Source: a virus. Taken from it: 64,000 nucleotides of DNA. The stretch lies in the IMG/VR virus record IMGVR_UViG_3300029922_000015, positions 85,935 through 149,934 of that record; one strand, 5' to 3'. This document shows, piece by piece, positions 501 to 62,528 of this stretch. How positions within the stretch are numbered: the first letter of the stretch is position 1; each line of letters opens with the position of its first letter. The notes below the pieces were generated by a model. The model worked only from the letters and a program-made list of their open reading frames with translations. It made no database searches and was not told the origin of the DNA. The position numbers and the translations under genes are program-made.

Positions 501-875
501 TTATTGTATTTTATCAAGGTTCTTTAGCCAAAGGCTCCTTAATTCTAAAAATTGTGTGTGTTCCATGATATCTCCGTCCGAAAACCAGAGGAAATACCAA
601 TCTTTATCCGCAAATAAACCAATCGTTCTGTTTATAAATCCAATCATCTCTCTTTTATCTTCCAACATAAAAGGCTCGGTTTTAATTACCGGCTGAAACT
701 TCGGTCTTTGTGTTAAAACCGTTGTCCAATAAATGTTATGATGAAAAATCGCGCTGATATGAATAAAATACTTTGTGTCCTCTACTGTCATTCCTTTATT
801 TTCATATACCTCCGGCTTAAACTTAGATGCTAAATTTACAGCTTCAAATAAGGGAATAACTTGGTCATCGGTCAT
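501..875 (-). CDS. hypothetical protein
   Basis: 124-aa ORF abutting neighbours in the leftward operon. Confidence 0.7.
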   Translation of the reverse strand: MTDDQVIPLFEAVNLASKFKPEVYENKGMTVEDTKYFIHISAIFHHNIYWTTVLTQRPKFQPVIKTEPFMLEDKREMIGFINRTIGLFADKDWYFLWFSDGDIMEHTQFLELRSLWLKNLDKIQ

Positions 876-1319
876 TTAGCCTTTAAGACGATCTTCTCTA
901 TCTTTTTTAACTTCGTCCTTTACTTTTTCGTATGGTAGTTTTTGGTCATTACTATAGCCGGTTCTAATTTCTCTTAAATCGTCTAAAGAGGAAGGAAGTT
1001 TTCCTTCATTTATCATTTCTTGAGTTTCTAATAAACAAAGAAAATTCCAGACACAGGAAATGTCATGCCTTTCGTCTGTATCTCCGTTCAAATGTTTAAA
1101 AGCATGTCTCAATCCCGAATCTAAATAACGAGATAGCGGAATTCCTTTACGCCAATTTGCTTTAGAATATTTTTTGGCTCCAAGTTGGAAATGTTTCGCT
1201 ACTAGAGCTAGGGCTCTAGGAGGCAATAAACTATAGTCACCTTTTTCGGTATTTACATCGCGAACGGCTCCGGTTTCGAATTTTTGACGCTCTCCGCTAT
1301 CTTTAATAGAATATTCCAT
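876..1319 (-). CDS. dATP/dGTP diphosphohydrolase domain protein (DUF5664-like)
   Basis: DSGERQKFETGAVRD...KGDYSLLP...GAKKYSKANWRKGIP...DSGLRH signature. Confidence 0.85.
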   Translation of the reverse strand: MEYSIKDSGERQKFETGAVRDVNTEKGDYSLLPPRALALVAKHFQLGAKKYSKANWRKGIPLSRYLDSGLRHAFKHLNGDTDERHDISCVWNFLCLLETQEMINEGKLPSSLDDLREIRTGYSNDQKLPYEKVKDEVKKDREDRLKG

Positions 1320-15232: not shown

Positions 15233-15540
15233 TGTGTTTATCATATATAAGGTTTAAAACAGGAGACAACAAAGGAGTTTATTCTAATAGAAGGGCAAAG
15301 CGAGACTTTAAAACAAGTCAATGAAGATGAGGACGTGGGAGCGAAACTCCATCGTATAAAAAATCCGTCTCTGGATACTCGTTTAGACCTTTGAAGGATT
15401 GAATGCCCTAGTGGGGCGCGAGCTTGCAACATAGTTCGGGCTTTTTAATACACGGAAAAGTAAAGAATTTTCGAAAGGAAAAACTGACAAATTGTTTCGC
15501 TTGTAGTGATACAAGAAAGCGTAGCAACGCGAAAAAAATT
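15233..15540 (+). ncRNA. candidate structured ncRNA/leader
   Basis: ORF-free on the coding strand; long-range stems aaggtttaaa/tttagacctt and ggagac/gtctct; three-way-junction motif at the 3' end. Confidence 0.45.
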
Positions 15541-23175: not shown

Positions 23176-23913
23176 TTAATTATATTGCCATTTAAATCCC
23201 ATCGCGCTTCTAAGAATATAAGCACCTTGAGCGTTTTTACATATATAGCCTTTGCAGACTTTAGTAATCGCGCTACATTGATTGAACTTTCCAAACGAAT
23301 AAGCTGCTTCTTTAGCAGAGGGCCAGATTTTAATTATTTTCCCTGTTTTTTTATCAATTTGTTGGACAGCCTTAGCCCCAATACCTTTATGAAGTTCGGA
23401 TAATTTTTTCCTTGTTGCTTTAGTATGATGTCTACCGAACATTGGATTATTTTTTCCTGAAAATCTTTGTCGATTTAAATTTCCTATTAATATTTTTGTC
23501 TCCTCGGTGTGTGCTTTACCATAAAAGGGATTTTTTATTCCTTTCATACTTTCGGACATTCTTTGGCGTTCTTTTTTAGAGGCTTTTCTTCCGGTCGTAT
23601 CGTTTGAGAAAGTACATATATTATATCCTATTTTTTGATTAGTAGAATTTAATTTCTTGATCCATTCGGTTTCTATTTTCAATAATTTTTCATTCTCAAT
23701 TTGATCAAAGCTTTCCAAAATGGAAACCTCAAAATTTTCCCAACCATATTTATAAATAGCATAAGATACTGGATGATTTTTTGTAGGAGTTTTTTCATAA
23801 TGTCGATAGCAACGCATTCTTTCACGAATGCGAACCGACTTTCCAACATAAACTTTCCCATTAATTTTGTTAGTTAAAAGGTAGATTCCCGGTTTTGAAG
23901 TTATTTCGCTCAT
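23176..23913 (-). CDS. GIY-YIG homing endonuclease with NUMOD3/NUMOD1 domains (free-standing)
   Basis: GIYLLTNKINGKVYVGKS; NPFYGKAHT and NPMFGRHHT (NUMOD3); C-terminal KIWPSAKEAA...GFKWQY (NUMOD1). Confidence 0.93.
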   Translation of the reverse strand: MSEITSKPGIYLLTNKINGKVYVGKSVRIRERMRCYRHYEKTPTKNHPVSYAIYKYGWENFEVSILESFDQIENEKLLKIETEWIKKLNSTNQKIGYNICTFSNDTTGRKASKKERQRMSESMKGIKNPFYGKAHTEETKILIGNLNRQRFSGKNNPMFGRHHTKATRKKLSELHKGIGAKAVQQIDKKTGKIIKIWPSAKEAAYSFGKFNQCSAITKVCKGYICKNAQGAYILRSAMGFKWQYN

Positions 23914-51767: not shown

Positions 51768-52310
51768 ATGCAAGTAAGAGCAATTTTTGATGGTGAAATT
51801 TTCCACGAAGTCTTATTTGATGATGAAGATTTAGATTTCTTTAATAATCATAGTTGGTATGTTTCTCGTCAAGGATATTTAATTACAAGTATTCCTAAAT
51901 GCGTTACGATTAAACGTAAAGGATTCAAAGTCAGAAGATACAAGCGTCGAACTTTGATGCTATTCCATCGTAAAGTAATGGGGATTACAGACAATACTGT
52001 TTCTACGGATCATATCGATCATAATAAGCTTAATAATCAAAAGTCTAATTTGCGAGTATGTTCAGCCCGAACGAATGCGTATAATACAAGAAAATGTAAA
52101 GCGCCTCGTTCTTCGCGTTTTAAAGGCGTGAGTTTTTGTAATACTCGTAAGCTTTTTCGAGCTAATATCAAGATCAATAATACAATAAAACATCTTGGTT
52201 ATTTTGATGATGAAGTATGTGCCGCAAAGGTATATGATAAAGCAGCCCATACATACTTTGAAGGATATGCTTATTTAAATTTTCCTAATGATGTAAATGA
52301 TTATGATTAA
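51768..52310 (+). CDS. HNH-AP2 homing endonuclease
   Basis: DHIDHNKLNNQKSNLR (HNH_3) plus SRFKGVS...HLGYFDDEVCAAKVYDKAA...AYLNFP (AP2). Confidence 0.93.
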   Translation: MQVRAIFDGEIFHEVLFDDEDLDFFNNHSWYVSRQGYLITSIPKCVTIKRKGFKVRRYKRRTLMLFHRKVMGITDNTVSTDHIDHNKLNNQKSNLRVCSARTNAYNTRKCKAPRSSRFKGVSFCNTRKLFRANIKINNTIKHLGYFDDEVCAAKVYDKAAHTYFEGYAYLNFPNDVNDYD

Positions 52311-52590: not shown

Positions 52591-52731
52591 ATGAAACGCA
52601 TTATGAAAAACAAAAATCACTTTCGCTTTTATGTTACTATGTGGGCTAATCATGTCATTGCGCAACGCCCGAAGATGAGTTATTTTTATGTCAATTGCAT
52701 TTCAAAAGAGCTTGATAATCTAGCGAAATAA
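52591..52731 (+). CDS. small peptide, paralogue of 52423..52563
   Basis: Manual translation MKRIMKNKNHFRFYVTMWANHVIAQRPKMSYFYVNCISKELDNLAK. Confidence 0.5.
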   Translation: MKRIMKNKNHFRFYVTMWANHVIAQRPKMSYFYVNCISKELDNLAK

Positions 52732-52778
52732 TAGTAAATAACGTTAATTTATATATTATTTGGATGTATAATTGATGG

Positions 52779-52876
52779 ATTCGAACGAAAATGGCTTAAA
52801 TAACAAAGGCCCAAAATTCGAACGAAAAAGCTCTAAATAAGACCCTCCTGAATTCGAACGATTTTTTGCTAAATAA
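52779..52876 (+). repeat. three bipartite direct repeats ATTCGAACGA-N8-TAAATAA
   Basis: Units at 52779, 52816 and 52852 (period 37 and 36 nt). Confidence 0.9.
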
Positions 52877-53370
52877 GAGCCGCCGCGCGTCGCGATGTCG
52901 AACCCGGGGCAACTGTTCAGCCGCGTGAACAAAACCCGCTGCGGGCTTTAGCGTTACAGCTTAATTGTTTATATTTGCTAATATTTAGCCGACCGGATCG
53001 CCACGTTGACTTATAGGGCATTTTGTTTGTTAGCTTTTAAGCGGGCAATTTCTTTTGTAAGTAATTGTTATTATAATTAATTAAAACTATTTTTTTAAAA
53101 GCGTGCGCTATGGTCGTACTAGTCGCTAGGTCTAATCGTTTCTAGACCTATTTGCGCTCGATTGTGCTATGGATAGCTTTTGACCACTTTGTATAAAAAA
53201 AGCCAGTTAGATTACAAGTTTATTTATTAAACAAATTGGCATGGAACTTTCCTTAGCGGCTTATTCCGCATTGCCTTATATAAGGCGCAAACAAACAAAC
53301 TAACAAACAAGTTTATTATATTATCGTTGCAAGGGTTTATAACTTATTTGCAATTTTATAAAAAATTCGC

Positions 53371-53399
53371 TTGCTTGCCTGTAGCTTATGCCTTACTCT
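53371..53399 (+). promoter_or_regulatory. sigma70-like promoter for the large RNA/RuvB unit
   Basis: TTGCTT-17-TACTCT; predicted +1 at 53406 coincides with the 5' arm of the closing stem. Confidence 0.55.
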
Positions 53400-53405
53400 A
53401 GCAAC

Positions 53406-53806
53406 GTTGGTCGAACGCTAGGCGCTGGCAAAAAACAAAAGCGCGGTGAGCTAACCTGATAGCACGTATCTGCAACGGAAAAGCACTGGTAAACTTTTAG
53501 AGTTTATCACGATGGTAAAACGGTAAACTTTACCACTCGCAAGAGAGTATGCGTCAATTAATGTGAGACAAGCTAGAGTGGCAAGCTAAAGACTCTAGAC
53601 AGGTCATTAAGTAGCGCAAAGGGCAATGCGATATTCGAAACAGGCTAGCGAGGCGGTCAAATCTCGCTAGCCTCTAGTTTCCAGCTAGGGCAATTGCAAT
53701 CTTGCGTCTCCCCTTTACCTTTTTTACTCTCATTAAATTAATCGCGAAAAAGAGAGTAGAGAGGGAAACACAAGAGATTGTCTTAGCTAGAGATTAGATA
53801 ACCAAC
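53406..53806 (+). ncRNA. candidate ~400-nt highly structured RNA
   Basis: GTTGGT/ACCAAC closing stem and multiple 7-11-bp helices; no ORF. Confidence 0.6.
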
Positions 53807-53824
53807 AAACGAAAGGAAAACATC

Positions 53825-53995
53825 ATGTCACAACGCATTGCACTCCATATTGCTTGCATCTATTGCAAGCCTCGCACGTTCACATTTCACGCTAAAGGCA
53901 TCATGCGCGAAATTGATTCCCTATCACTCGCCGTCAAAGTCATCATCTCGCAAGCGATTGTTATTCTATCGCTGGCGGTAATGGCTTTGTTTTAG
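53825..53995 (+). CDS. 56-aa peptide with hydrophobic C-terminus
   Basis: GAAAGG SD-like element; MSQRIALHIACIYCKPR...VIISQAIVILSLAVMALF. Confidence 0.5.
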   Translation: MSQRIALHIACIYCKPRTFTFHAKGIMREIDSLSLAVKVIISQAIVILSLAVMALF

Positions 53996-54080
53996 TCAGA
54001 TTTCAGCCTAGTCTAATCCGCTAGGCTGTAGTCTGGTAAAAACGCCAGAAACAAACAAACAACTAACGAAAGAAACAACT

Positions 54081-55073
54081 ATGAAGTTCACCAAAGAATA
54101 TATCGGACAACAGGAGTTTTGCCGGATGTCGGAAAACGTTTGCAATGCCGTCGCGGAAGAGCGGAACATCCCGCTTCCCTGCCTTGGCTTTGTTGGCTAT
54201 GCCGGACTAGGCAAGACTAACGCGGCGGAAATGCTTGCCAAATGGCTTAAGCAGGCAAGCGAGGGACAAGCGAATGCCCTTGGCGAACGCGACGAATTCA
54301 ATTATGTCGAAATCAACGCGGCAACCACGCTTCCTAACTTGATCAATATGCTTGTGGAGATTGAACACAAGCGCGTTTTGATCTTTGTTGACGAAGCGCA
54401 CGCTTTGTCGAAGAAAGTGCTTAATTTCCTTAAGCCCATTCTTGAGCTTGGCAACGCAATGACGAAAGAAATCCGTCACGGCGACTTTCGCTTCACCGTT
54501 GACCGCAAGCGGCACCTGTGGATATTTGCCAGCAACGAGAACTTGCTCGATTCCGCAATCTTTGGATCAACGGGTCGCGCAACGTCTATTCAATTCGTGC
54601 CTTACTCGCGCAAGGAGGTTATTGATCTTATCAAATTCAAAGCTTCCTTTTGGGCGAAGGAATTCAAGATCACGCCGGAAGCGATTGAATACCTCGCAGA
54701 TCGCGTTTTGCCTAATGGTCGCGCGGTGGATCATCTCGTAAAAGATGAATGCATGTACTCCGGCCCGACTATCACGGTTGAAAAGGCCAAGGAAATGTGC
54801 AAGACGTACAAGCGTTTCCCCGGCGGTCTTTGCGTCAACGACATCAAAACGCTTCGCTTTCTCGGCATCGATGCCAACGGAAAGCAGGTCAATGAAATCT
54901 CTTCTCATTGCGGAGGCGAGCCGAGTAAGGAAACGTCGTATCGCCTGCAATGGCTTGCCGGGCTTGGCTACGTTGACACTAAGGCGGGTAAGAAGCGCCT
55001 CACTCCCCCCGGCGCGAAATACCTCGCGGACTTGGAAGCTAAGCAAAAGGCCAAGAAAGCAGCAACTCGCTAG
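54081..55073 (+). CDS. ruvB: RuvB-like AAA+ ATPase (Holliday junction helicase homologue)
   Basis: EYIGQ, Walker A GYAGLGKT, Walker B IFVDEAH, C-terminal wHTH GL...D...L...GYV....R.LTPPGAKYL; 330 aa, the size of RuvB. Confidence 0.78.
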   Translation: MKFTKEYIGQQEFCRMSENVCNAVAEERNIPLPCLGFVGYAGLGKTNAAEMLAKWLKQASEGQANALGERDEFNYVEINAATTLPNLINMLVEIEHKRVLIFVDEAHALSKKVLNFLKPILELGNAMTKEIRHGDFRFTVDRKRHLWIFASNENLLDSAIFGSTGRATSIQFVPYSRKEVIDLIKFKASFWAKEFKITPEAIEYLADRVLPNGRAVDHLVKDECMYSGPTITVEKAKEMCKTYKRFPGGLCVNDIKTLRFLGIDANGKQVNEISSHCGGEPSKETSYRLQWLAGLGYVDTKAGKKRLTPPGAKYLADLEAKQKAKKAATR

Positions 55074-55081
55074 GCAATCTA

Positions 55082-55113
55082 GAGTTAGCCGGAAGTAACT
55101 AACGGCGAAACTC
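55082..55113 (+). promoter_or_regulatory. GRRGTRACTAA-loop hairpin (copy 3)
   Basis: gagtt-a-gccg-GAAGTAACTAA-cggc-ga-aactc. Confidence 0.6.
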
Positions 55114-55129
55114 GCAACCTAACAAACTA

Positions 55130-55555
55130 ATGAATCTTAACTTAAATCTCACCTTGTCGGTCATTATCGGTAAGGACATGACGCAAGCGCAAGCGGATAA
55201 TGCCGCAATCATCGCAGAATCGCTCGTAGCGCGTTTTGAAGCTAAGTATGGTCGCACCGTAGCGCCTAGCGTACAAGTCGCGTCTAATGGCAACGCAGAC
55301 GCCAACAAGGCTTATTTGCAAAGCCAAGGTCGCAACCGCACGCCAGTATCCACCGATACCGAGCTTGCCTTGCGCTCCAAGGTGGAAACTCCGATTGATT
55401 GGAGCAACCTGCAATCGCGGCATGAGGCATTGCGGGCGCTTGGTTATGACATCTTTGACCTTAACCGCGACAAGGTGTTTGCGAATGGCGCAACGCGCGG
55501 CGATATCGGCGCAACGTTTAATGGTGACGTATCCACCGAGGACATACCGGACTAG
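55130..55555 (+). CDS. hypothetical protein
   Basis: 141 aa, co-oriented with ruvB, A/C-rich leader. Confidence 0.7.
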   Translation: MNLNLNLTLSVIIGKDMTQAQADNAAIIAESLVARFEAKYGRTVAPSVQVASNGNADANKAYLQSQGRNRTPVSTDTELALRSKVETPIDWSNLQSRHEALRALGYDIFDLNRDKVFANGATRGDIGATFNGDVSTEDIPD

Positions 55556-55636
55556 ACCGCTATGCTTCTCACCGTCATCTCTTGTCTCTTGTTATTCTCA
55601 TTCATCACAACGCAACGTTAGTAAACACAATCACAT

Positions 55637-56056
55637 ATGCAAAACATCATTAATCGAATCACTGGCGCATCTATCGCGCTTCACCCGTCGGGCAATCGTC
55701 TTAAGTTGGTTATCGAAGGTACCTCAAGCCAAGTGGAGCAAGCGACTAACTTGCTCTATAACTTCCACGCAATTACAGAGTTGCCGGAATGGTATGAGCC
55801 TAGCTTTACCTATTGCGAATTCTTTGTGACGCGTAAGCATTTCATTCGCGGATTGCTGGCGCTTTGCCTGTATCATGGCACCAGCGAGCGCGACAAGGCC
55901 AAGGGTCGCATTGCAAGCGGATTTGCCAAGTGTGTCCAAGCTGTCATTGGTACGGCGCACTACTTCAAAGCCATCACGGTACAGCCTCAGAGCAAGCCTA
56001 GCGAGTTCATTTGCGCGTTGTCTGACTTGTCGGACGCCGAGCCGATGGCAATCTAA
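55637..56056 (+). CDS. hypothetical protein, paralogue of 16697..17059
   Basis: See 16697..17059. Confidence 0.7.
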   Translation: MQNIINRITGASIALHPSGNRLKLVIEGTSSQVEQATNLLYNFHAITELPEWYEPSFTYCEFFVTRKHFIRGLLALCLYHGTSERDKAKGRIASGFAKCVQAVIGTAHYFKAITVQPQSKPSEFICALSDLSDAEPMAI

Positions 56057-61033: not shown

Positions 61034-61621
61034 TCAAGAAGTTTCCTTAATCCATTCTTCCCATCCGGCTAAGGTATCGGGGTTGGCGAGATTTTCTACC
61101 GGTACGCCAGCATATGCCGCCAAACGGATTGCTTGTCCTGTTCCTCCCGTTGCATAGCTTGTCTTAATAGCTAGGCCATCTGCCGCGTCCTTTGTCCAAC
61201 AAATAACAAACCGCGAAGGATGATTAAAATTAGAGCCGTAGATTTGAAAGGCATTACGGATCATTAGTTTCTTACCACCAATAGAGAGCTTAGCAAAATT
61301 AGGATGAAACTGTTTTGCTAATTGTTCACCGCTCTGAATGATTTTGCCGTCTTTTACTAGAATAGCGTTACGATAACCATGAGATAGATTGTTAAATCCG
61401 TTCCAAGGAATATAAATTTCCGCTGGCCCCTTCGCCTCCTCAACACCGCGTTGAAAAGCAGCGTCCGCACCGTCCGCGCCCCCCGAACGAAGAATATTAC
61501 GATTAACCAGAACCATTTTCATCGCAATTTTTTCCATAAGCGACAAAATGGACTCGGGTGTTTCTCTCGAACCTATTCCCGCATAATAGCAGTGTGTCAA
61601 TCGGCAGACGGATGGGATCAT
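61034..61621 (-). CDS. DprA/Smf-like (SLOG superfamily) protein
   Basis: YAGIGSRETP, LRSGGADGADAAF, RNAFQI, GGTGQAIR. Confidence 0.75.
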   Translation of the reverse strand: MIPSVCRLTHCYYAGIGSRETPESILSLMEKIAMKMVLVNRNILRSGGADGADAAFQRGVEEAKGPAEIYIPWNGFNNLSHGYRNAILVKDGKIIQSGEQLAKQFHPNFAKLSIGGKKLMIRNAFQIYGSNFNHPSRFVICWTKDAADGLAIKTSYATGGTGQAIRLAAYAGVPVENLANPDTLAGWEEWIKETS

Positions 61622-61754: not shown

Positions 61755-62528
61755 GTGATGAGAAAGAAAAACCTCGGGAAAGCCAACGGGAGCCTGAAAG
61801 CTCATACTTTAGATAAATCGATCAAAGTTTACCAAAGAGATAGAATCTCTTTCGAACTACATCTCGCCAAACCTGAATGGACAAAAAAACAAAGAGAGTT
61901 AATCGAAATTATTCGACACTCTAATACGAAATACATCTTCGTAAAAGGCGCAAGTGGAACTTCGAAAACCTTCATTTCTTTGGCCGTTGGCTTAGAGTTG
62001 TTGAATTTAGGCAGAATAAAGGAAATTATTTTAGTTCGTTCGATTGTTGAATCTGGCGCTGTAGGGCTTGGTTCTCTTCCCGGCGATGAAAAACTCAAAA
62101 TGAGTCCCTTCATGGCCCCTTTCGAGGAAAAATTAGCTCTTTTATTACCCAAAGACGAAATAAAAAAACTGTACGAAGATGAAAGATTAGTTTGTTTACC
62201 CGTAAATTATCTTCGAGGGCGCGAATTTAACGCTTCGTATATCATTATCGATGAAGCTCAAAATTTAAACGAACATGAAATTCAAACAGCTTTAACACGT
62301 TTGGGTAAATTTTCAAAAATGGTTATAGCAGGGGACACGGAGCAAATTGATTATATCAAAGGTAAAAAGGCAGATTCGGGGTTTAGAAATTTTTACGATT
62401 GGTATAATAAAGAAACTGCACAAGACAACGGAGTCCATTGTTTCAAATTCGGCATTGAAGATATTATGCGCGATGAAATCATCAAATACATTGTAGCGGA
62501 ATATGATTTATTCAGACAAAGAACATAA
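61755..62528 (+). CDS. phoH: PhoH family ATPase
   Basis: GASGTSKT, LGSLPGD, YLRGREF, IIDEAQN, LTRLG, GDTEQID. Confidence 0.93.
   Translation: MMRKKNLGKANGSLKAHTLDKSIKVYQRDRISFELHLAKPEWTKKQRELIEIIRHSNTKYIFVKGASGTSKTFISLAVGLELLNLGRIKEIILVRSIVESGAVGLGSLPGDEKLKMSPFMAPFEEKLALLLPKDEIKKLYEDERLVCLPVNYLRGREFNASYIIIDEAQNLNEHEIQTALTRLGKFSKMVIAGDTEQIDYIKGKKADSGFRNFYDWYNKETAQDNGVHCFKFGIEDIMRDEIIKYIVAEYDLFRQRT

Follow-up and report, generated by a model that had tools for sequence, protein, structure and literature searches.

RNase III processing stems are known in the early and polycistronic transcripts of phages, examples being the R sites of T7, the N-leader of lambda and sib, while the put RNA of HK022 and EAR are cis-acting antitermination RNAs. 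Few structured RNAs reach several hundred nucleotides and have a multi-helix core, and new classes have tended to reveal a ligand, a protein partner or a regulatory trick. The RNA described here resembles GOLLD and ROOL in being a multi-domain structured phage RNA, but differs from them in its size (∼390 nt, with a core of ∼170 nt), in being part of a leader where they stand alone near tRNAs, and in having five members.

This RNA precedes the gene for a RuvB-like AAA+ ATPase in a phage genome assembled from a metagenome. Comparison with related phages indicates that the stretch is a real folded RNA, absent from Rfam and made of exchangeable modules, and not the single closed fold of 400 nt that the original prediction had proposed. 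We consider the chances somewhat better than even that positions 53406-53797 form the folded 5′ leader of the transcript of the RuvB-like operon, acting in cis.

Results

Genomic setting

The window, by which we mean the whole stretch of DNA analysed, is the last 64 kb of the 149,934-bp IMG/VR virus record IMGVR_UViG_3300029922_000015, the completeness of which is estimated at ∼75%. Peat metagenomes are the only holders of this DNA; their contigs are identical to the window and hence add no variation, and no RNA datasets are listed among the holders. The folded RNA lies within a gap of ∼890 nt that has no credible open reading frames (52932-53825). The RNA stretch itself was predicted to have no ORF, and the only frame in it is one of 31 aa with a TTG start (53702-53797). 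Downstream follow a 56-aa ORF (53825-53995), a 330-aa AAA+ gene (54081-55073) and two genes for proteins of ∼140 aa.

The base composition of this part of the window is distinct. The GC fraction over 54000-56000, which covers the RuvB-like gene and its two followers, is 0.50 compared with ∼0.38 elsewhere, in agreement with an earlier note of an ‘island’. The tetranucleotide CTAG occurs 12 times per kb in 53000-54050 and ∼2 times per kb elsewhere (128 copies in the 64 kb, against 227 expected from base composition), most of the copies in 53000-54050 being placed symmetrically in hairpin stems. Genes for HNH and GIY-YIG-type homing endonucleases and for DprA-like and PhoH-like proteins are found at 51768-52310, 23176-23913, 61034-61621 and 61755-62528, and PhoH is also encoded near the RuvB-like gene in another locus, L009.

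Folding energy and search of Rfam

The 401-nt stretch folds on the + strand with a predicted energy of −134.7 kcal/mol, which none of 100 dinucleotide shuffles equalled (z −6.57), and the − strand gives z −3.65. This energy is carried by hairpin C and the long hairpin of the 3′ part, the high z-score belonging to 53642-53797. The segment that holds the core (53440-53640) gives z values of −0.44 (+ strand) and −0.31 (− strand), and is by itself thermodynamically ordinary.

At gathering score the whole window has no match in Rfam 15 (4227 models, including riboswitches, C4, GOLLD and ROOL), consistent with the original failure to recognise signatures of tmRNA, RNase P, 6S, SRP or introns. When E-values were used instead, only miRNA-precursor models matched the long hairpin; their 39 bits fall far below the cut-off of 83, and the matches merely reflect the length of the hairpin. 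The outcome was the same for the four related loci described below (L002, L003, L007 and L008). ARAGORN found no tRNA or tmRNA, and a search of the literature found no description of the RNA. Judged by these comparisons, core and leader appear to constitute an RNA family that is absent from Rfam 15 and whose general kind is known.

Structure and covariation of the conserved core

The RuvB-like ATPase has 17 homologues, and 13 loci were collected for eleven of them. A conserved core was found in four other contigs, L002, L003, L007 and L008; it lies upstream of the RuvB-like gene in all five loci that have it, and its own 150-kb genome contains a single copy. In the multiple alignment, conserved blocks alternate with helices whose letters differ between loci. 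Since MAFFT alignments misplaced three of the helices (A, Px and Py), the model R1 was seeded with one sequence, L002:362-502, on which a six-helix structure had been drawn by hand. R1 matches the window at 53468-53637 with 45.5 bits (E 5e-11), and also L008 (60.7 bits), L003 (50.2 bits) and L007 (38 bits), the E-values for the four copies ranging from 5e-11 to 3e-15; nothing further was matched in 124 kb of loci. A five-sequence model, R2, scores the window core at 97.6 bits.

The core thus delimited occupies ∼170 nt of the + strand (53468-53637) and has six helices. From its 5′ end come helix Z (53471-73/53483-85), helix A (53487-95/53501-09; tggtaaact/agtttatca) and helix B (53514-19/53529-34; tggtaaa/tttacca), the last with a conserved 9-nt loop, ACGGYAAAC. 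Two further helices, Px (53537-41/53627-31) and Py (53550-54/53614-18), are separated by the invariant strands AGAGUA (53544-49) and AAGGGCAA (53619-26), which together with the loop of helix B are the invariant unpaired elements of the family. Inside Py is a window-specific hairpin (53573-79/53592-98).

In the R1-based alignment of the five loci, 95.3% of the core pair cells are standard pairs, compared with 68.2% after shuffling (0/500), and the value falls to 32-43% when the partners are slid by 1-3 columns. Changes on both sides are seen in 21 of the 29 core pairs; these statistics rest on few lineages, the family consisting of five members, one of them truncated, that are all metagenome assemblies, with the relatives coming from studies of peat and moss. 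The alignment behind the 95.3% figure was fitted to the structure, and two checks that are free of this fit were therefore made. Given an ordinary MAFFT alignment, RNAalifold still finds helices A and B, with compensatory changes in them. Py can also be read at fixed offsets: the five bases after AGAGUA can be paired with the five-base stretch that stops two bases short of GGGCAA, giving 5/5 pairs in the window and likewise in L002 and in L003, with letters that differ in all three, and 4/5 in L007. For Px, the bases just after GGGCAA pair with a strand a few bases before AGAGUA, and in the window a one-base register shift is needed at fixed offsets. Py and GGGCAA are both missing from L008, which is thus a truncated member of the family. 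These comparisons establish that the ∼170-nt core is homologous in five divergent phage contigs, with its predicted base pairs kept through compensatory changes.

Several of the helices originally proposed are borne out by the relatives, namely A, B, the stem of hairpin C and the two helices of the long hairpin. Others have to be redrawn. A hairpin ctc-GCAA-gag had been proposed for a region in which covariation instead pairs 53537-41 with 53627-31 as Px; where the window, L002 and L008 have a U-A pair, L003 and L007 have C-G, a change that the ctc-GCAA-gag hairpin cannot accommodate. The helix ctagagt/actctag does exist, but as a window-specific extension at a place where the relatives have a 4-bp hairpin.

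The 8-mer AAGGGCAA has 11 copies in the whole genome (G000), compared with ∼2.6 expected. Most are on the + strand, and most of these are probably coding. One copy lies in an ORF-free gap near 15291 of the window that had earlier been flagged as a structured RNA, where R2 finds no match. An alternative pairing of AGAGUA with a word in the long hairpin was considered and rejected, the shared 6-7-mers being at chance level and the relation not being kept in L008.

Is the conserved entity an RNA, or could it be the DNA itself? A replication origin, or an array of palindromes bound by an initiator-like AAA+/winged-helix protein, might also produce hairpins, as cruciforms or operators. The long non-coding stretch does adjoin a gene for an AAA+/winged-helix protein, CTAG-containing palindromes are enriched (12 per kb against ∼2 per kb elsewhere) and the − strand, too, folds better than its shuffles (z −3.65). 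The pairs nevertheless have the polarity of an RNA. G-U exceeds A-C by 8:1 in the core pairs and seven G-U pairs are kept in the 3′ hairpins, all at places where the opposite strand would have A-C mismatches; with the stronger fold of the + strand (z −6.57 against −3.65), this agrees with the + strand RNA that was predicted. Helices are kept despite changes in their letters, which a sequence-specific binding site would not allow, no iteron-like direct repeats are seen by eye, and the best structural matches of the protein are to RuvB, with Orc/Cdc6 far behind. Because of the G-U pairs and the compensatory changes, a role at the DNA level seems extremely improbable.

The putative promoter and the 5′ domain

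A putative promoter on the + strand (53371-53399) consists of a −35 element TTGCTT (53371-76), a 17-nt spacer and a −10 element TACTCT (53394-99); an A/T-rich stretch lies ahead of it. Transcription is predicted to begin with the G at 53406. This start had been proposed from the window, and a matching arrangement (TTGnnn, a spacer of 16-17 nt, TAnnnT or GATnCT, then a G after ∼7 nt) is found at the same place in all five loci (the window, L002, L003, L007 and L008). Each hexamer matches the sigma-70 consensus at 3 of 6 positions, which explains why a consensus scan made no promoter call here.

Upstream of this promoter is a second conserved non-coding element of ∼240 nt (53005-53245). It is found in L007 at 865-1135 (reverse strand), in the opposite orientation relative to the RNA. 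The element includes a promoter-like site on the − strand, TTTAAA-18-TATAAT (53099-53070), and also a conserved A/C-rich leader and start codon, the latter opening a 34-aa ORF (52917-53021, − strand) in the window and merely a 6-codon frame in L007.

The transcript would begin with a variable 5′ domain (53406-53467, + strand) that contains hairpin X (53422-26/53440-44) and, directly 5′ of the core, hairpin Y (GGU 53445-47 with ACC 53454-56). The letters of hairpin Y, read directly from the sequences, vary from CGGC/GCCG in L002 and L008 to GGUU/AACC in L003 and L007, and outside this hairpin both the size and the content of the domain differ between loci. A previously proposed helix acctg/caggt overlaps the covarying hairpin Y and an insert found only in the window, and we have dropped it.

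The original prediction had also brought the two ends of the molecule together, pairing GTTGGT at 53406-11 with ACCAAC at 53801-06 (+ strand) to close one RNA of ∼400 nt. These six pairs exist in the window and appear in its MFE fold, and in L003, L007 and L008 the 5′ end can be matched over 4-5 bp with the A/C-rich sequence ahead of the start codon. However, words of the CAAC type are frequent in A/C-rich leaders, so that such matches are easily found, and in L003 the 5′ partner may be upstream of the start site. The ACCAAC site is not kept in L002, the closest relative, where different letters stand in its place, and shuffled targets give duplexes as good as this one (z +0.77). A closed molecule is thus very unlikely; the comparison points instead to three parts, the variable 5′ domain, the covarying core of ∼170 nt and an optional 3′ module.

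The 3′ module

The 3′ module begins with hairpin C (53642-53673, + strand), which has an 11-bp stem (aggctagcgag/ctcgctagcct) and a conserved loop, GCGGUCAAAU. It is followed by the long hairpin (53674-53797, + strand), in which ggcaat pairs with attgtc and tttttactctc with gagagtagaga. The basal helix of this hairpin, helix L, is a long-range helix of 21 bp (53674-94 with 53777-97, + strand) in which 20 of the 21 positions pair.

In L002 both hairpins match those of the window almost throughout, down to seven G-U pairs, and one pair of hairpin C is deleted on both sides. In hairpin C of L007 one G-C pair is swapped to C-G and one C-G pair has become U-G. At the place of helix L, this locus has an 18/18-bp helix (1495-1512 with 1676-1693), plus five pairs after a bulge, that encloses ∼160 nt unrelated to those of the window; six positions of helix L differ on both sides between the two loci with the pairing kept. 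Hairpin C is absent from L003 and L008, of which L003 has no 3′ module and L008 retains only the 3′ strand of helix L. The predicted pairings of hairpin C and helix L are thereby established as kept in three of the five contigs.

RNase III substrates have ∼20 bp or more of mostly continuous double-stranded RNA, and helix L offers this length in both the window and L007. We regard it as a candidate RNase III-type processing or stabilising stem. Its absence from L003, and the presence of only one strand in L008, imply that such processing cannot be the general role of the core. Two further hairpins, both U-less, lie between the small ORF and the RuvB-like gene (53996-54047 in the window, 868-925 in L002). 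L002 keeps both of these stems and differs in the loop of the first, and they may be processing or stabilising structures.

Genes of the operon

The 56-aa ORF (53825-53995, + strand) has a hydrophobic C-terminus and is preceded by a ribosome-binding stretch (53812-53820, + strand). The codon differences between the window and L002, 17 synonymous against 3 non-synonymous, indicate that it is a real gene. In the other lineages the first ORF downstream of the RNA is small and unrelated.

The 330-aa protein (54081-55073, + strand) gives weak matches to the Pfam families RuvB_N, AAA and AAA_22, and a sequence search of the PDB found nothing. Its AlphaFold model (pLDDT 89) has as its best PDB matches in Foldseek structures of RuvB, over ∼325 columns with TM 0.65-0.70 and ∼20% identity; ClpB and Orc/Cdc6 are far behind. 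The three domains of RuvB, that is the AAA+ domain, the lid and the C-terminal winged helix, are all present, so that the protein as modelled has the full RuvB fold. Its 17 homologues (40-94% identity) come almost all from SRA assemblies; the Walker A, Walker B and sensor residues are invariant among them, and the C-terminal winged helix is conserved.

Following the RuvB-like gene in all loci, as aligned, is a gene for a protein that has 141 aa in the window (55130-55555, + strand). Searches of Pfam and PHROG gave no match for either of the two genes that follow the ATPase. The model of the 141-aa protein is mostly helical and of low confidence (pLDDT 71, pTM 0.45), too weak for a structure search. 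Homologues of the ∼140-aa protein (L003-L013) have a conserved acidic tail of the form V/I-P-D/E.

A scan of 52700-55300 detected nothing resembling a terminator, and nothing resembling a promoter downstream of the RNA as far as the start of the RuvB-like gene. The idea that the RNA is co-transcribed with the 56-aa ORF and the RuvB-like gene accords with the lack of a terminator-like site between them.

Distribution and mosaic exchange

BLAST comparisons between the loci give a mosaic. L002 matches the window at 86% from 53619 onward and again at 52942-71, with 650 nt between these matching flanks that cannot be aligned, and the other loci share patches with one another. Between flanks that are 86-100% identical, promoter and core have been replaced (52972-53633 in the window, 162-500 in L002), and in the window this exchange has its boundary immediately downstream of the 3′ strand of Px. 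The cores of the window and L002 are 55% identical whereas their RuvB-like proteins are 94% identical; conversely, L002 and L008 have cores that are 78% identical and proteins that are only about half identical (the L008 protein has 49% identity to that of the window). The core has, on this evidence, been exchanged between phages independently of the RuvB-like gene. As core identity does not track protein identity, and as the boundary lies just after Px, promoter and core behave as a swappable cassette ahead of the RuvB-like operon.

Some RuvB-like loci have no such RNA. With filters off, R2 finds no match upstream of the RuvB-like genes of L005 and L009, where the gaps are not unusually structured (z −1.3 and −1.7), and with default filters it finds no significant match in L010/L011 or L013/L014. 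L009 has the same −35 motif and a short leader of ∼60 nt with no RNA, which implies that the RNA is an insert between promoter and genes, as a regulatory module would be. Both L009 (2900-3000) and L005 (1950-2106) retain a −35 motif of similar form (GCTTGC or TTGCAT) together with the A/C-rich leader end, the L005 leader keeping also a TTAGATAAAC-like word. This suggests that an older short leader either acquired the structured core or lost it.

These observations bear on whether the RNA works as part of its transcript or on its own. A stand-alone trans-acting or ribonucleoprotein RNA would consist of the core and hairpin C, freed from the 5′ end of the transcript by, say, cleavage within helix L; it would then be a stable molecule that might work together with the 141-aa protein or with the RuvA-less RuvB-like motor. 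The RNA has some of the marks of such a molecule, namely a promoter of its own, an elaborate core of several helices and unpaired motifs that do not vary. Hairpin C could protect its 3′ end, helix L is long enough for RNase III, and the RNA is always near a RuvB-like gene; the lack of conservation in the first ORF downstream, moreover, means that the RNA is not tied to a particular coding sequence. The swapping of the core independently of the RuvB-like gene (55% identity against 94% for the window and L002) and the RuvB-like loci that lack it (L005 and L009, with no significant match in L010/L011 and L013/L014) argue against an obligate partnership with the RuvB-like protein. Further, no terminator defines a 3′ end, and the conserved loops have no antisense targets in the 150-kb genome. 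On balance a released RNA is doubtful, though of appreciable probability.

Searches of wider collections added little. A pattern running from loop B to AGAGUA had 54 matches in viral_contigs, none confirmed by R1, and a stricter pattern had none in metagenome_contigs. Three matches in genome_contigs, all in Nostoc MAGs, were rejected by R1; the one that was inspected (L070) lies inside a 686-aa ORF, and the Nostoc matches are due to chance and give no clue to the host. Locus searches with the RuvB-like protein or its alignment gave nothing in viral_contigs and only two distant, short contigs in metagenome_contigs, and a phage GenBank collection had no DNA or protein match. P0021 is a close variant with the same gene order.

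Regulatory designs

As in a riboswitch, an aptamer-like domain with invariant unpaired nucleotides lies upstream of related genes (5/5 loci), but no expression platform is apparent, 52700-55300 having no terminator. Duplexes between the core and the ribosome-binding sites were no better than shuffles in any of the five loci. A c4-like or anti-Shine-Dalgarno design was rejected in the same way, duplexes against both start regions having z of 0 or above relative to shuffles, as were trans targets of the conserved loops, the complements of which are not enriched in the 150-kb genome. The absence of a terminator, of complementarity to the ribosome-binding sites and of trans targets weighs against a simple riboswitch or antisense design.

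Discussion

How might a leader of this kind act? We suggest that the RNA would act in cis, with the core, through AGAGUA, AAGGGCAA and the loop ACGGYAAAC, providing a putative site at which RNA polymerase, a small ligand or a protein would bind, and so setting the level of expression of the operon. Helix L, a double-stranded stretch of ∼two turns shortly before the first ribosome-binding site, could serve as a processing or stabilising stem of the RNase III type, as in phage early transcripts. Several findings count against a leader: there is no expression platform, with neither a terminator nor core complementarity to the ribosome-binding site beyond that of shuffles, the first ORF downstream differs between lineages, the core alone is thermodynamically unremarkable and the promoter is a poor match to sigma-70.

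A bolder reading gives the core a more specific identity. It would be a new class of RNA that binds a ligand, a protein or RNA polymerase, riboswitch-like or put-like, carried in a promoter-plus-RNA cassette that is swapped among peat phages and switches on a RuvA-less RuvB-like module for recombination or replication; or else it would be the RNA subunit of a new RuvB-like ribonucleoprotein. We regard this as unlikely.

Independently of the function, covariation support is good despite the few members, and the RNA sits before a phage-encoded homologue of RuvB, near which no RuvA is apparent. The cassette is exchangeable to the extent that near-identical phages have cores of 55% identity and distant ones share 78%, a pattern that resembles the mosaic exchange of phage control or immunity regions and hints at a shared factor, of host or phage, to which the RNA responds. 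The secondary-structure model is concrete and testable, and corrects the architecture that was proposed earlier.

Each of the described systems shares some features with this locus. The closest in arrangement to c4 (P1/P7) and CI (P4) is the order of promoter, structured RNA, small ORF and larger gene, with an RNA module that varies between otherwise near-identical phages, as immunity modules do. In contrast to these, there is no C4 match here, and the exposed segments have no complementarity to the downstream ribosome-binding sites or to the genome. HK022 put and EAR are likewise promoter-proximal folded RNAs that need no conserved coding partner, and the U-less hairpins that follow the small ORF and the RuvB-like gene here add to the likeness; they differ in that there is no similarity of sequence or structure (Rfam), and no canonical terminators lie downstream here. 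Compared with the RNase III stems of T7 and lambda, helix L is alike in being an imperfect stem of ∼two turns in a promoter-proximal leader, near a ribosome-binding site and with compensatory change, but unlike them it follows a conserved multi-helix core and is missing as a stem from two members of the family. Riboswitches and protein-binding leaders, including those borne by phages, differ from the RNA in that no Rfam match, terminator or helix sequestering the ribosome-binding site was found here, but share with it a domain conserved in position behind the promoter, with invariant loops carried on variable helices.
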